A DNA stretch of 43,010 nt. Origin: a virus. Its lineage: Duplodnaviria; Heunggongvirae; Uroviricota; Caudoviricetes. The notes under the pieces were generated by a model. The model saw only the letters and a list, made by a program, of their open reading frames with translations, was not told where the DNA came from and did not search any database. A program made the position numbers and the translations under genes. Positions 5,514 through 43,010 of the stretch are shown here, piece after piece (within the stretch, counting starts at the first letter, position 1; each line of letters begins with the position of its first letter). The stretch lies in IMG/VR virus record IMGVR_UViG_3300025011_000002. One strand, given 5' to 3'.

Positions 5514-5882
5514 ATGATTTGCCGTAAACATAAATTTCCCCTGCAAGAATTTAAAATTTATACAAAATATTTAATACAAGCAATATTAAAAGAATATGTG
5601 AAAGAATCTTACGTTAATATAGAAAATTTTGGTCTATTTTCAAACAAAATAAATGTTGGCACATATAGACATGTATTAAGAAATATCGAGGTTAAAATTC
5701 CAAGTCATGTAGTTCCATTATTTATATATGACACAAAAGCAAGAGACTTTATAAATGGATATAATTATTTTGAAGATAGAACTAGCTGGCAAAAAGAACA
5801 TGATGAAAGAGAAAGAATAAAGAAAGAAAAGTATAAACAAAGGTATGCCGAGATTAACAACATAAAGGATTCAGATGTCTAA
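5514..5882 (+). CDS. HU/IHF-like DNA-binding protein
   Basis: Probable start ATG 5514 just after the upstream stop (ORF opens at 5430); YVNIENFGLFSNKINVGTYRHVLRNIEVKIPSHVVPLFIYDTKARDFIN aligns by eye with the HU beta-arm region. Confidence 0.55.
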   Translation: MICRKHKFPLQEFKIYTKYLIQAILKEYVKESYVNIENFGLFSNKINVGTYRHVLRNIEVKIPSHVVPLFIYDTKARDFINGYNYFEDRTSWQKEHDERERIKKEKYKQRYAEINNIKDSDV

Positions 5883-6171
5883 GAAGCAAAAACACAAAAA
5901 AATTGCGAAAAGCTGTTTAGTGTGCGGAAAAGAATTATTTGATAAAAAAGAAAAGATTGCTTTTCGTGTTGACAAAACAAAAGGACACAAAGAACATAAT
6001 ATTATTATTATATGTGAAGATTGCCATAGGATATTTAATAATGAAACAATATATGATATTTATATTGACATAAGAAATATAGAAACATATTTTAAAGAAT
6101 TTGGAAAGACTTATTTAAATATGTTTTATCAAAAGATTTATAGATTAAGAATGAAAAACAAAAAAGGCTAG
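5875..6171 (+). CDS. HNH-like zinc-binding endonuclease (degenerate)
   Basis: CLVCG...GHKEHNIIIICEDCH; the first His of the HNH motif is not evident. Confidence 0.55.
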   Translation: MSKKQKHKKIAKSCLVCGKELFDKKEKIAFRVDKTKGHKEHNIIIICEDCHRIFNNETIYDIYIDIRNIETYFKEFGKTYLNMFYQKIYRLRMKNKKG

Positions 6172-6190
6172 TCGTTAGACTAGCCTTTTT
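6161..6190. terminator. Bidirectional intrinsic terminator
   Basis: aaaaaggctagtc-gtta-gactagccttttt, 13-bp stem between the convergent HNH gene and tmRNA. Confidence 0.85.
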
Positions 6191-6410
6191 CTTTGGGATT
6201 TTATGCTGCTATTGCAACATTTTGTGAAAAATCCAAACACACAACATTTTTGCCTTTTGTTGTTTTTCTTGTTGATAACGAAGAACAGTCTCCGACTGCG
6301 AGTTTATTCACATCTACCATGTCAAAACCTGGCGACCCCAAGTATGGAATCGGTGGGAATCGAACCCACGTCCACAACAAACGCCTATAAACCTTCTACA
6401 GTTTAGCTCT
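6191..6410 (-). ncRNA. ssrA: Circularly permuted (two-piece) tmRNA
   Basis: Minus strand: CUAAACUGUAG...GGAC, T-arm GUGGG-UUCGAUU-CCCAC, CGAUUCC-A (6352-6345), linker UACUU, then 5' end GGGGUCG (6339-6333; G3.U70) CCAGGUUUUGAC, helix-2 strands, pk1 (CGGAG/CUUCG; UGUU/AACA), tag ORF and helix 5. Outer ends approximate. Confidence 0.9.
6201..6254 (-). other. tmRNA proteolysis tag reading frame (A)GKNVVCLDFSQNVAIAA*
   Basis: Inferred GGC resume codon at 6254 after pk1 and an A-rich spacer; ends in AIAA-stop, a typical ClpXP degron; UGUUGC/GCAGCA hairpin over the last codons. Confidence 0.85.
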
Positions 6411-6578
6411 TTTAAAGATTGAGCAATCTATTTCTTCTACTCTATAAAGTTTAACTTCTCTTGATTTATTAATACTTCTACATAAAAAGAAATCAGCCTC
6501 TTCTGGAGTATCAAAAAAATTATTATCGTAACGACCATATTGGTCATTGTAAACAGTAACTAAATACTTTTCTATCAT
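6396..6578 (-). CDS. Hypothetical protein (stop codon overlaps the tmRNA acceptor piece)
   Basis: 60-aa ORF co-oriented with neighbours; no recognisable motif. Confidence 0.6.
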   Translation of the reverse strand: MIEKYLVTVYNDQYGRYDNNFFDTPEEADFFLCRSINKSREVKLYRVEEIDCSIFKRAKL

Positions 6579-7102: not shown

Positions 7103-7480
7103 TTATATATTAATATCTATTTTTTTATTACCTTTAAATGTAATTAATCCTTTTGCTTCTTTATTTAATGTAGGTATAACTTCTTTAACATAGTCTTTAT
7201 TATTTATTTTTATCCCTCTTAATTTATTTAAATAATTTTGTATATTCTTTATAAATTCTGGATAAGCTTTAAGCCATTTATCAAAAGGAATATTACCTCT
7301 TAAATTATTTATATCTTTATCTACCATTAAATAATTTGATTCTATATTTTTACCACCATTACAATGAGGTAATATATGCTCTACTGTTCTGTTTTCTCTT
7401 GCAACTTCTTTACCAGTATAAGCATCTGTTGAAACATAATCTTTTAATTTGGATTTATATCCAAAACTAATAGGAAACAT
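7103..7480 (-). CDS. HNH-family protein (bacterial-type, xxISFG N-terminus)
   Basis: TVEHILPHCNGGKNIESNYLMVDKDINNLRGN is an HNH core without the CxxC pairs. Confidence 0.7.
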   Translation of the reverse strand: MFPISFGYKSKLKDYVSTDAYTGKEVARENRTVEHILPHCNGGKNIESNYLMVDKDINNLRGNIPFDKWLKAYPEFIKNIQNYLNKLRGIKINNKDYVKEVIPTLNKEAKGLITFKGNKKIDINI

Positions 7481-8519: not shown

Positions 8520-8940
8520 TATTCTTCTCCATTTCTTCTTCATAATAATATTCTGCAACTTCTAAGGCTTGTTTTATTATTGTTGATAATCTAAATTTTC
8601 TTTTTAACTCTTCTTCTCTTTTTATCATATTATAAATATTTTCAAAAACAATATCTTCATACTTTTTAAAACTCAAATGTTCTGGTAAAGTATTTATTAA
8701 CATATCTTTTATCTTGTATTTTCTTTTATCTTCTTGTAGAGTATCTTTATTATTAAATCCTTTATCTAAACATTTTTTACAATATTTATAATCAGGAGGA
8801 ATATTCTGTGTATTACAATCATCTGAATCAATAAAGGAAGAATCACAGTAATTAATATTTCTTATTCCTAATAAGGAGTTCTTACAAGTAAAGGTAACAT
8901 ATTCTATTTCTTTTATCTCTTTATTTTTTTCTTCACTCAT
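8512..8940 (-). CDS. Hypothetical protein with Cys cluster
   Basis: Intact ORF; YCKKC and other Cys residues suggest metal binding. Confidence 0.6.
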   Translation of the reverse strand: MSEEKNKEIKEIEYVTFTCKNSLLGIRNINYCDSSFIDSDDCNTQNIPPDYKYCKKCLDKGFNNKDTLQEDKRKYKIKDMLINTLPEHLSFKKYEDIVFENIYNMIKREEELKRKFRLSTIIKQALEVAEYYYEEEMEKNNG

Positions 8941-9025
8941 AAACTTTTAACCTTTCTCTATACTTAAAATATTATCTTTTAACTATTTTAGTATAACATA
9001 TAATAGAATATGATGCAATATACAA

Positions 9026-9218
9026 GTTCTAAAATTTTAGAACATAAAACTTTTAACCCCAAAATTTATTAATAAATTAATTTATCATCTTTTAAAAGAA
9101 ATTTTAACACAACATCTCTATATAAATATTTAGAACCTTGTAATCTTTTATTCTTGTAGATATTTAATATACTTGTATTTATTTAAATAAATAGAACTTA
9201 TATAAAATAATAGAACTT
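9026..9218. repeat. TAGAAC motif cluster with 18-bp palindrome
   Basis: Palindrome gttctaaaattttagaac at 9026-9043; further TAGAAC copies at 9131, 9192 and 9211. Confidence 0.55.
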
Positions 9219-9777
9219 TTAAATATATCTTTAATATAAAATAAAAACTAATATAAATTAATGACCATTTTAAATATATCCAATTTCTCAAATTTCTTCT
9301 ACATATTTATGAATAATCTATTATATGTTCAAAAAAGGTTATTTTAAAATTACTCACCTCAAAATTATAACATCTTTTATAATAAAAAACAATAGATATT
9401 CATACATAGGGGTATGGGAAAAGGTATTTTGGAACTAGCCCTCTGTTAGAAGTGAGTACCTTGCCATCAAACCTTTAACCCCTCTTACATTTTAGGCGGG
9501 GCATTAAATAAAACAAGCCTTTAAGCCTTGCAATGATTGAAACTAAGCATATATTTAAATAAATATGAGTTTAACTTAATGTTAATTAAGTTAAACTGCT
9601 TTAATAGACTGGTTAAAGAACTATATAAACATTTTAGCATGCTTAAATTTGTATTGATTTAAATTAGTTCTAATGTTTTAAGATTGCATGTGTGAATATA
9701 AAAATAAAACTGTGTTTAAGGTACACAGTTTATAAATGATTACAAGTATTATATAATTATTATTAAAAGCTTTATTA

Positions 9778-9891
9778 TTATTTAATCAATATAATTAAAC
9801 CTGATTTAATTAGAATAACCATAACAACTATAAAGATAAACCAATTAATAAAAGCATTTCTTTTTGCCGCTCTTACTCTTAAAGCTTGCAT
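9778..9891 (-). CDS. 37-aa single-pass membrane peptide
   Basis: Not in ORF track; MQALRVRAAKRNAFINWFIFIVVMVILIKSGLIILIK with GAGG RBS and its own promoter. Confidence 0.65.
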   Translation of the reverse strand: MQALRVRAAKRNAFINWFIFIVVMVILIKSGLIILIK

Positions 9892-9909
9892 TCTTTTAAA
9901 TCCTCTTAA

Positions 9910-9953
9910 CTGATAACTATTAGATTATATCATTAACCCTTATTTTATGTCAA
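9910..9953 (-). promoter_or_regulatory. sigma70-like promoter with GTTATCAG leader motif
   Basis: TTGACA (9953-9948), 18-nt spacer, TGA-TATAAT (9929-9924), GTTATCAG at 9917-9910. Confidence 0.75.
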
Positions 9954-10257
9954 TACTTTGTTATAAAATATTGCTTATTTAATCTATTACTTATTTTATA
10001 TTATCAATTATATTTGTATTTTTTGTTATATGTAAATATATTTTACTCTCTCTTTATAAGTCAATAATATTAAGCATCTTACAAATATATAAACGTATTC
10101 TAAGCCCATTATAAGACTCATAAACAAAAGTTTTATATTATCTGATATAAACATATACTAAGATAAAGAAAGATTGATTTTTAAGATATTACTAGCTTTT
10201 AGTCTATTTATAAATAAATAAACAATCATTTTAAAAGCTTTATAAATATATAAAAAA

Positions 10258-10280
10258 ATATCCCTCAAAAAGAAGGATAT
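10258..10280 (-). terminator. Probable intrinsic terminator
   Basis: atatccctc-aaaaa-gaaggatat hairpin followed by a T-tract on the minus strand. Confidence 0.5.
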
Positions 10281-10362
10281 TTTTAAATCATAAATAAATT
10301 TGTTTACTTAAATAGCGTTATAAATAACTTAATCGTTATATGATGTTTACCTCTTTTTTTAA

Positions 10363-10378
10363 ATCTGATTAATCAGAT
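10363..10378. repeat. 16-bp perfect palindrome
   Basis: atctgattaatcagat, downstream of the promoter at 10424-10453. Confidence 0.6.
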
Positions 10379-10423
10379 AACTGCATTCAATAAATAAATA
10401 TTTTTTTAACCTTTCATAATTAA

Positions 10424-10453
10424 ATTATAACATTATTTATTTTATTTTGTCAA
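10424..10453 (-). promoter_or_regulatory. sigma70-like promoter
   Basis: TTGACA, 18-nt spacer, TGT-TATAAT. Confidence 0.7.
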
Positions 10454-10457
10454 GTTT

Positions 10458-10667
10458 TTAAAATTCATATGTAATATTGTCTTTTAATAAGAATATATTA
10501 ATATATTCAGTCATATATAATTTATGTCCTTTTAAATAACCAGTATAAAAATATCTTGTTATCATTCCATTTTTATCATATTTATATGTTATTGTATTTT
10601 GCATGCCTAAAATGAAAATGATATTTAAAAATATTATTATTAATAAGAATTTTATATAAGTTTTCAT
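10458..10667 (-). CDS. Hypothetical protein with N-terminal hydrophobic segment
   Basis: FLLIIIFLNIIFILG; co-oriented intact ORF. Confidence 0.55.
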   Translation of the reverse strand: MKTYIKFLLIIIFLNIIFILGMQNTITYKYDKNGMITRYFYTGYLKGHKLYMTEYINIFLLKDNITYEF

Positions 10668-26739: not shown

Positions 26740-27294
26740 TTATAAACTAAAATCTTTTAGTGCTTCGTCTCTTATATCATCATTTATTCCAATATAACGC
26801 ATGGTTACTCTTTGAGAACTATGGTTTAATAAATCTTGTATTAATGCTATATCTTTTGTTTTTTTATAAAAATGATAACCCCAAGATTTGCGTAAAGTAT
26901 GATTCCCTATTTTATCAGTTATACCTACATTTCTACAAGCCTTATTTATTATATTATACATCATAACTCTTGTTAATGGCTTATTCTTTCCTTCTCTTGA
27001 ATAGAATAGATGGTCTTCTTTTTGTAAATTTTCTTTATTAATATATTTTAATACTTCTTTTTTTAATTCTTCATTAATTAAGAACCTTTTATATTTATTT
27101 GTTTTTTGTTCTCTTATCATTAAATGAGTATTGTCTAAAAAGTCATTTGCCTTTAATTTGAGTAAATCTACAGAGCGCAAGCCTGTATTAATTCCAACAA
27201 AAAACATCATATAGTTTCTATAAGAATCTTTCTTTAATTCTTCTTTAACTTTTTCTATTAATACTTTATTTCTTATTGGTTCTACGGTATTCAT
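26740..27294 (-). CDS. Tyrosine recombinase (catalytic domain only, XerC/D-like)
   Basis: NTGLRSVDL (Arg), HTLRKS (H-x2-R), LLNHSS (His), TMRYIG (Tyr); 184 aa. Confidence 0.9.
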   Translation of the reverse strand: MNTVEPIRNKVLIEKVKEELKKDSYRNYMMFFVGINTGLRSVDLLKLKANDFLDNTHLMIREQKTNKYKRFLINEELKKEVLKYINKENLQKEDHLFYSREGKNKPLTRVMMYNIINKACRNVGITDKIGNHTLRKSWGYHFYKKTKDIALIQDLLNHSSQRVTMRYIGINDDIRDEALKDFSL

Positions 27295-36411: not shown

Positions 36412-36633
36412 TTAATTTAAATGTGCTTTAAACCAGTATTTATTTATATCAGATTCTTCTTTTATAATTACTCCTGATTTTGTAGAAGTGCTAAAATCTT
36501 TATATGTTATTGGAATAAGATTTATTTTATCTCTATCTGTAAAAACTTTTACGGCAGATAAACATTCTCTTTTTATTTTCCAAACCCAATAAAAATTTGA
36601 ATCACATTTAAAATATAAATATTTATTCATCAA
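36412..36633 (-). CDS. Hypothetical protein
   Basis: Intact co-oriented ORF. Confidence 0.55.
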   Translation of the reverse strand: MMNKYLYFKCDSNFYWVWKIKRECLSAVKVFTDRDKINLIPITYKDFSTSTKSGVIIKEESDINKYWFKAHLN

Positions 36634-37387
36634 TATTCACCACTAAATCTCTATTAAATCCAGTATTATTCTCGTGTGGGTAGCCTAATGGGTTGCATAA
36701 ATAGCGAGTTTTATCGTCAATAAAATCATGAAATGTATGGCTATGTCCACTAGCCCAAATAATAGGTTTATTATTACAGTCTGCTATTTCTCCTCTTAAT
36801 TCTGTTCCATAAGCAGAATCAAGAAAGTTATTGCTGTTTAAAAATGGCTTATGATGCGTAATAACAACGCAAGGCTCTTTAGATTCATTAAGAGTTTTAA
36901 ATATATATTCTTTTGCAATCTTATGTAAGGTTGTAGAATATTCTGGTGTAAATTTTAAAGCTCCATTTTTATATCTTATAAGCCTAAAATCATTCATACT
37001 ACTTCCTGCATCATACATATCAATAGGGCTTCTATTATTTAAAGAAGTCCATAAAGTTGAACCAATAAATCTTATTCCATTAATGATAACAGAATTATTA
37101 TTTAGATAATGAAAATTTTTATGTACCGCTTCAATTCCTGAAAAGAATATATCTGCTTTTTCAATATATGAATGATAAAACGTATGATTGCCATTTATAT
37201 AAATAATATCTGTATTAGGATATTTTTCTGCAAGTTTAATAATAAAATTAAAACAGTTTTTTAATTCTGCTAAATCTCCTGCAATACAATAAACATCAAC
37301 ATCTTTTAAATTAGGTATATACCCATGTCCAAAATCAATATGGAGGTCTGATTCAAATTTTATCTTCATAACCAAGATATTACCCAT
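36623..37387 (-). CDS. Calcineurin-like metallophosphoesterase
   Basis: SDLH, AGDL, GNH, THH and GHSH motifs. Confidence 0.9.
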   Translation of the reverse strand: MGNILVMKIKFESDLHIDFGHGYIPNLKDVDVYCIAGDLAELKNCFNFIIKLAEKYPNTDIIYINGNHTFYHSYIEKADIFFSGIEAVHKNFHYLNNNSVIINGIRFIGSTLWTSLNNRSPIDMYDAGSSMNDFRLIRYKNGALKFTPEYSTTLHKIAKEYIFKTLNESKEPCVVITHHKPFLNSNNFLDSAYGTELRGEIADCNNKPIIWASGHSHTFHDFIDDKTRYLCNPLGYPHENNTGFNRDLVVNIDE

Positions 37388-40222: not shown

Positions 40223-40711
40223 TTAAACCTCTTCTTTAATATTATTAATAGAATGCAATGTTGTTATACCTAAAGAGTTCCACATTTTTATATTTTTAAT
40301 TTCATCGTCTACAGCTAATTTTATATCAAATCTACCTTTTATTGAAGAAGTATATATGTCTTTTTTTACCTTATCTGAATCTTCATAATTATCAAAAGGT
40401 CTCATAAATAAATGATATAAATCATTTAATTGATAATCAGGCACTCTCCAAATTTTATCAAGCATATTTCTTGTTAAATTAAGTCCATTATCTGTAGCTT
40501 CTCTTGCGGTTACAAATAATATTTTATACCCTTGTTTAGAATAATTTTCTATTAATTCTAAACACCAAGTATTAAATTTATAATTAATATAAAATTTTTC
40601 AAAATTACCCCATTCTTCTCTACTTGTTTTGTCTTTAGGATAAATATAGTGGGCATTATCTACTAAACACCCATCTATATCTATTATTACCGCTTTAGGA
40701 ATATATCTCAT
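40223..40711 (-). CDS. HAD-family phosphatase (polynucleotide 3'-phosphatase-like)
   Basis: IIDIDGCL (DxD), FVTAR, K, AVDD motifs as in the T4 PNKP phosphatase domain. Confidence 0.8.
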   Translation of the reverse strand: MRYIPKAVIIDIDGCLVDNAHYIYPKDKTSREEWGNFEKFYINYKFNTWCLELIENYSKQGYKILFVTAREATDNGLNLTRNMLDKIWRVPDYQLNDLYHLFMRPFDNYEDSDKVKKDIYTSSIKGRFDIKLAVDDEIKNIKMWNSLGITTLHSINNIKEEV

Positions 40712-42036: not shown

Positions 42037-42230
42037 TCTATTATTTCACTTTCTAATATGTTTACTTTACCATCTATTATTTTGTATTTAATTTTACAAC
42101 CTTTATCTACACCATTTGATGAAGAATCTATAGCTATTTGTACAGGATTAATATTTTCCCAAGCTTTTTTTATTGCTTTTTCGTCTAATGTAGAAATATA
42201 TAAATCTTTTAAACAATTATTATCCTGCAT
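42033..42230 (-). CDS. Hypothetical protein
   Basis: Intact, coupled ORF. Confidence 0.55.
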   Translation of the reverse strand: MQDNNCLKDLYISTLDEKAIKKAWENINPVQIAIDSSSNGVDKGCKIKYKIIDGKVNILESEIIE

Positions 42231-42814
42231 TATAATTCTATAATCCTTTTAATATCATCTTTTATATCTAATCCACTTAATTCTTGTCCAATAGTAATCC
42301 AACCATTTCTAGGTTGTCTTGCAAATAATTCAATTCTTGGTAAATCTCCAAATAATTCAACTATTTTATCTGCAATAATATCTGGTTTTTTTGAATGATA
42401 CTCTAAAGGACTTTCTACAATAGAAGAAATGTAATTACTTATAGGCTTCATTTTCCCTTTAATACCTAATATACAAAGTTCTGAACCTGATTTTGTATAG
42501 TATCCTGTTCCAAAATGTGTTTTACCATTTTTATATTCTTTCTTCCAATTAAAGGCTATATTTGGTATTTTAAATCCCCAATGTTTTAATAATGACAATT
42601 TATCTATTATATCAGAATCAGATGTCATAGATGTTGTAATCCACATGAATATAGCACAATTATCATCTGCTAAATCTTGTATTGGTAAATTCTTAATATC
42701 TTCTATTTTCATAGGAGGATATTTATCTGTTATTCCACCACCAAATTTAGTTTTTAGATTATTTCTTTTTGGAAAATACCAAGCAGGGTCTAAATAAATT
42801 ATATTAAATTTCAT
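42230..42814 (-). CDS. MT-A70-family adenine methyltransferase
   Basis: Start re-set to ATG 42814 (GAGGT RBS); IIYLDPAW (DPPW-like), SELC, HSKKP and RIELFAR are MT-A70 motifs. Confidence 0.85.
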   Translation of the reverse strand: MKFNIIYLDPAWYFPKRNNLKTKFGGGITDKYPPMKIEDIKNLPIQDLADDNCAIFMWITTSMTSDSDIIDKLSLLKHWGFKIPNIAFNWKKEYKNGKTHFGTGYYTKSGSELCILGIKGKMKPISNYISSIVESPLEYHSKKPDIIADKIVELFGDLPRIELFARQPRNGWITIGQELSGLDIKDDIKRIIEL

Positions 42815-43010
42815 TATTAACCTCAATATGCTTCCAAGTTCTTCCTCTAAAAATATCTCCAATTGTTTTTTCATTAACTTTATATATTTTAGCTATTTTT
42901 CTATTGGTAAAATTATTTTTAATATTTTTTATTTCAATAACTTGTCTTTCGGTTAATTTTGAATTAGTGGTATTTTCTCCATATTTAATTGGTTTTAAAC
43001 CAGAATCATA

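Follow-up and report, generated by a model that had tools for sequence, protein, structure and literature searches.

The window, i.e. the whole 43,010-nt stretch of DNA that was analysed, carries a complete circularly permuted tmRNA gene on its minus strand (approximately 6403–6160). tmRNA is an RNA that rescues stalled ribosomes. Judged by its sequence, the locus is a genuine two-piece (permuted) tmRNA gene. All elements named in an earlier sequence-only reading were found in the proposed order, both by motif coordinates and in the alignment to the Rfam family RF04321. The elements described below are all located on the minus strand.

The acceptor piece comes first (6345–6403, a minimal extent based on the RF04321 alignment, motifs and pairs). 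Here P2c, P2b and P2a contribute their 5′ strands (ACUGU, 6402–6398; GGUUUAU, 6393–6387; UGUUGUG, 6379–6373), followed by GGAC and the T-arm GUGGG/CCCAC with the loop UUCGAUU (6369–6353). All five pairs of the T-arm are formed, and the loop is of the GUUCGAnUC type. The acceptor 3′ strand CGAUUCC (6352–6346) and the discriminator A (6345) end the piece. The linker UACUU (6340–6344) comprises 5 nt, and CCA is not encoded.

The coding piece (6160–6339) begins at G1 (6339), and the terminator hairpin closes it. Its first element, the acceptor 5′ strand GGGGUCG (6333–6339), pairs with 6352–6346 at seven of seven positions. The stem contains the alanine identity pair G3·U70 plus G4·U69. The D-loop analogue CCAGGUUUUGA (6332–6322) is followed by the 3′ strands of P2 (CAUGGUA, 6321–6315; AUAAACU, 6307–6301; GCAGU, 6299–6295). 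All P2 pairs are canonical, and P2a is composed nearly entirely of G·U pairs. When the pieces were cofolded by minimum free energy, P1 and the T-arm were recovered and the G·U-rich P2 was not; comparative pairs were used instead.

The sole pseudoknot of the gene, pk1 (6268–6294), lies between P2 and the tag. It consists of P3 (CGGAG/CUUCG) and P4 (CUGUU/AAC-A-AG, with a bulged A). An A-rich stretch (6267–6255) precedes the tag reading frame GGC...UAA (6201–6254), which was located by the RF04321 alignment and motif coordinates. The frame comprises 17 codons encoding GKNVVCLDFSQNVAIAA and has the hydrophobic end AIAA-UAA. Helix 5 (GGAUUUU/AAAAUCC, 6234–6228/6202–6196, seven of seven pairs) forms around the last part of the tag and shares bases with the stop codon.

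The 3′-terminal hairpin is an intrinsic terminator (6160–6191) located between convergent genes; its 14-bp stem leads into a U tract. Terminator-like sites were more frequent than expected (three found versus 0.2 in shuffles). An A run lies before the stem of the tmRNA terminator and a T run after it. The terminator probably stops transcription in both directions. As only seven bases separate helix 5 from the terminator, pk2–pk4 are absent, and the expectation that there would be no room for them was correct. The total length had been put too low, at about 215 nt. The gene measures approximately 245 nt, as the terminator reaches to about 6160.

A 60-aa open reading frame (6396–6578, minus strand) lies upstream, with its UAG stop (6398–6396) inside the P2c strand. 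It belongs to no Pfam family and is possibly spurious. Its overlap with the first helix leaves the acceptor piece without a defined 5′ end, and the precursor probably arises from read-through. No promoter stands out at the locus (10 sites found versus 8.4 expected).

Phage surroundings and possible mobility

The location in a phage had been proposed from the sequence and was borne out: the gene is flanked by genes for TerL, portal, head protease and endolysin. The window has a GC content of ~25%, and its DNA was present in full in four runs of one groundwater metagenome study. TerL and portal shared less than 30% identity with any phage in the collection, and no cultured phage in the collection matched at the DNA level. 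A scan of 30 window ORFs revealed neither SmpB nor a CCA-adding enzyme.

Several further features of the window were recorded. The 8–16 kb region has the lowest GC content of the window (18–21%), and within it 1.5 kb (8940–10458) contain no ORF of at least 50 codons. A small protein of the tyrosine-recombinase family (184 aa) is encoded at 26740–27294, a calcineurin-like phosphoesterase at 36623–37387, a PNKP-type HAD phosphatase at 40223–40711 and an MT-A70 methyltransferase at 42230–42874.

Two small ORFs flank the tmRNA gene (5875–6171, plus strand; 7103–7480, minus strand) and show weak PHROG matches to HNH endonucleases. Pfam gave no HNH support for either, and there was no HNH-like ORF near the closest relative of the gene (L107, see below). 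These ORFs could be homing-type genes which move the tmRNA cassette.

We searched 185,579 species genomes for a host with the same form. The junction pattern gave no matches, and the coding-piece pattern gave two chance matches, neither with a tmRNA. In the pattern scans of viral and species genomes, the clade was thus found on phage contigs only.

These results bear on the idea that the tRNA-like half merely mimics an integration site, serving as attP homology for a tmRNA or tRNA gene of the host. The recombinase gene would fit such a role, and tmRNA genes are common integration sites (PMC11915505). However, attP fragments hold the 3′ end of their target only, whereas the window gene has both halves plus tag and pk1, in permuted order. 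The recombinase gene is also 20 kb distant, and the junction and coding-piece motifs were matched by no bacterial genome in the collection. We regard this explanation as extremely improbable.

Covariance models, relatives and compensatory changes

The generic permuted model RF04321 (tmRNA_permuted) matched with 77.6 bits against a gathering threshold of 47 (E = 2.5e-13 for the whole window), and the alignment covered the full model (1–213). This match is far above chance. No other Rfam 15 family was above its gathering threshold across the 43-kb window. The best-scoring subtype model was beta_tmRNA (RF01850) with 39.3 bits (gathering 84), and the terminator hairpin aligned to the 3′ hairpin of this model. 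In the window, cyano_tmRNA (RF01851) and alpha_tmRNA (RF01849) were below gathering and scored lower than beta in the clan competition. The Rfam comparison proposed in the sequence-only reading therefore had a divided outcome: the generic permuted model was passed, and all three subtypes fell below gathering.

ARAGORN made no tmRNA call in the window, even when thresholds were lowered to 70% (-ps70). The suspicion that scanners could miss the gene thus held for ARAGORN and failed for RF04321, which detects it at default thresholds.

A relative, one of the IMG/VR loci with a permuted junction (see below), was found on a 143-kb viral contig (L107), with 74% identity to the window gene over 232 nt and the same layout. 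The gene region of a 158-kb viral contig (L120/L121) was identical to L107, and L122 was an incomplete near-copy. Three more pattern scans for further clade members returned only L107, L120/L121 and L122, plus one chance match (L123). L107 scored 93.8 bits on RF04321. In L107 and L120, ARAGORN called a permuted tmRNA with the tag GNNTVSLDFGRKMALVA, in a frame homologous to that of the window gene. The tag frame is conserved at the protein level between the window and L107/L120.

At the junction of L107, CCA is encoded and is followed by a 1-nt linker and then G1. This arrangement argues for release and use of the acceptor end. The tmRNA gene of L107/L120 heads an array of at least 14 tRNA genes (L107:700–1036, L120:774–2158, minus strand), and a tRNA-Ala begins 5 nt past its 3′ hairpin. 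In L107/L120, the coding piece would thus end where RNase P processes this tRNA. A terminator hairpin lies immediately upstream of the tmRNA gene in L107.

The possibility that L107 hides a one-piece gene or a duplication intermediate upstream was considered and rejected. The candidate (L107:944–1168) scored 57.9 bits on the one-piece model RF00023 when the hit was cut off by the limits of the searched stretch. With the surrounding sequence complete, the score was 36.4 bits, below the threshold of 47, and many pairs were non-canonical. Hence, when hits are truncated, scoring may wrongly label a permuted gene as one-piece.

We compared the paired positions of the window gene and L107. All nine helices were paired in both sequences: 42 of 43 pairs were canonical in both, and eight showed double compensatory changes. 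When the partners were slid by 1–3 nt as a control, only 16–19 of the 43 pairs were canonical and 0–1 double changes were counted. These counts are based on two distinct full-length sequences, the same ones from which the structure was derived. The largest share of double compensatory changes was in pk1 (five: two in P3 and three in P4), with the position of the bulged A kept. Helix 5 contributed two double changes and P2a one, and P2c contained a co-inserted pair. Differences from L107 cluster in compensatory pairs, which argues for selection on the structure.

The conserved elements also bear on two readings in which the gene would not rescue ribosomes. As a decoy or inhibitor, the RNA would bind SmpB or ribosomes while uncharged or unprocessed and dampen trans-translation of the host; the 5-nt linker might keep the acceptor stem a closed hairpin, or CCA might never be added. 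The very short linker and the lack of an encoded CCA would agree with this. There is also a possible precedent: a passage of PMC11915505 cites a tmRNA-like RNA of mycobacteriophage DS6A, with no tag CDS, which inhibits endogenous tmRNA in Escherichia coli. Yet a pure decoy would not need the tag frame, resume context, helix 5 and pk1, all of which are kept with compensatory changes. Moreover, the sister sequence L107 encodes CCA next to G1, and short linkers without CCA are frequent among phage genes of the cyano type which otherwise score as full tmRNAs. A decoy is therefore improbable.

The gene might instead be a passenger or decaying relic, derived from a host or another phage and of no present function in the window phage. 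Its RF04321 score is under that of L107, it is rejected by ARAGORN and it has no clear promoter. No window protein matched the flanks of the relatives, and a homologue of the window TerL was not found in the L120 record. As the carriers share no detectable proteins in the compared DNA, the gene appears to move between phages, as a passenger might. Against decay, the helices are unbroken, neither the tag ORF, with its canonical hydrophobic end, nor the terminator is disrupted, and the changes relative to L107 fall mainly in compensatory pairs. A relic is very improbable. That the tag, pk1 and helix 5 are preserved and covary counts against the decoy, the relic and the integration-site mimic alike.

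The window gene among known two-piece tmRNAs

The sequence-only reading had described a phage-borne, permuted, minimal tmRNA as unusual. The published record contradicts this. In one study, 53 of 133 unique phage tmRNAs were two-piece (PMC9004378), and tmRNAs and SmpB have been listed in large environmental phages (PMC7162821). A curated set contains 79 phage and 11,946 permuted sequences, and RF04321 was built from that work (PMC11915505). As reviews state, a strong reduction in pseudoknot number is characteristic of two-piece tmRNAs (PMC3985003, PMC3968760).

The IMG/VR survey gave the same picture. With a degenerate permuted-junction pattern allowing linkers of 0–30 nt, at least 119 viral loci were found (L001–L119). 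In 69 of the 119 matches listed, the linker was no longer than 8 nt (4–8 nt), and many had no encoded CCA; because the pattern allowed 0–30 nt only, the linker lengths among these matches are not a fair distribution. The Rfam permuted and beta models, which come from bacterial seeds, hold ~25–30 positions for the linker. It may be that ultrashort linkers are characteristic of phages. In the light of these papers and loci, permutation, phage carriage, a short linker and the loss of pseudoknots are ordinary for the class.

Most of the matches listed were called by ARAGORN, and most viral loci tested passed cyano_tmRNA or beta_tmRNA. ARAGORN missed about 10 of 117 other viral loci (L005, L037, L044, L060, L063, L064, L074, L077, L078 and L103). 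Two of these, L005 and L037, both passed RF04321. Gly-initiated tags and ARAGORN misses also occurred in other viral lineages. Together with the window copy, these misses mean that phage surveys based on ARAGORN under-count.

In the structured-core tree, the window gene and L107 formed a pair (support 100/100) on a long stem. The pair was placed outside the cyano-type clade (97/99), in a polytomy with many divergent phage lineages.

The closest published counterparts are the two-piece tmRNAs of OM43 phage Melnitz, pelagimyophages and cyanophages (PMC9004378) and the tmRNAs of large phages (PMC7162821), which are likewise permuted ssrA genes on tailed phages. These counterparts share with the window gene a complete tRNA-like domain plus tag and a low number of pseudoknots. 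They are often located beside tRNA genes, as is the case in the relative L107/L120. The window phage differs in coming from groundwater and not from a marine habitat; its GC content is ~25%, and no riboswitch was seen. The clade lies outside that of the cyanophage-type genes and reaches no subtype model. Moreover, the window gene was not found by ARAGORN, the tool with which the published phage tmRNAs were surveyed.

With beta_tmRNA, the window gene shares an end-to-end alignment (model 1–331) and the layout of P2 strands, T-arm, acceptor, linker, P2, pk1 hairpin, tag and 3′-terminal hairpin. The differences are in the linker (5 nt versus ~30 in the model) and in the tag, which is Gly-initiated and has 17 residues, in contrast to the ANDxxxALAA-type tags of the viral loci passing RF01850. 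The permuted order is common to the cyano and alpha two-piece tmRNAs (RF01851, RF01849), and cyanophage-borne copies likewise have very short CCA-less linkers, whereas the tag is unrelated to the cyano ..NNIVAFSR.. type. G3·U70, T-arm, P2, pk1, tag and helix 5 also occur in the one-piece tmRNA (RF00023), and its motif GACUAA-C-UGUAGA ahead of the P2 3′ strand is kept. In contrast to the one-piece form, the gene order is permuted and pk2–pk4 are absent.

Hence, the window gene is a well-preserved added lineage of the already known phage two-piece tmRNAs. Specific to its clade are the passing of the generic model only, a long branch of its own, the occurrence on phage contigs only and the failure of ARAGORN to call the window copy.

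Proposed working and meaning

Taken together, the locus is best read as a functional two-piece tmRNA gene of a large AT-rich groundwater phage, with maturation and function inferred from sequence (probability roughly 85%). It would be expressed within one precursor transcript. As no promoter stands out, read-through from lysis-side genes upstream of it is the probable source. RNase P would cut 5′ of G6339. The UACUU trailer after A6345 would be removed by RNase Z or exonucleases, and CCA would then be added by a CCA-adding enzyme. With CCA not encoded and a linker of 5 nt, maturation would depend wholly on enzymes of the host or on unseen phage enzymes. The acceptor piece (at least ~60 nt) and the coding piece (~180 nt) would be held together via P1 and P2.

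The RNA would be alanylated by the host AlaRS through G3·U70. SmpB and EF-Tu of the host would bring the charged RNA to stalled ribosomes; SmpB was not found in the 158-kb record of L120 either. Translation would resume at GGC (6254), and the tag ending in AIAA would direct the products to host proteases. The putative benefit for the phage is that ribosomes are kept free while host and phage mRNAs are cut during infection.

A further-reaching version is that the clade is a phage-restricted lineage, permuted independently of alpha, beta and cyano, in hosts with a one-piece tmRNA, and that its own 17-residue Gly-initiated tag is unlike that of the host. This is unlikely. If true, the phage would redirect the fate of rescued proteins, beyond topping up the host system.

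The general understanding of tmRNA is left unchanged by the window gene. In practical terms, the newer Rfam model RF04321 recovers a copy that ARAGORN misses. The linkers of 4–8 nt, often CCA-less, offer a compact natural substrate for studies of RNase P, 3′ trimming and CCA addition on permuted precursors. For the phage two-piece tmRNAs as a family, the gene adds a structurally supported and well-preserved lineage, and this lineage comes from groundwater, not from the ocean.
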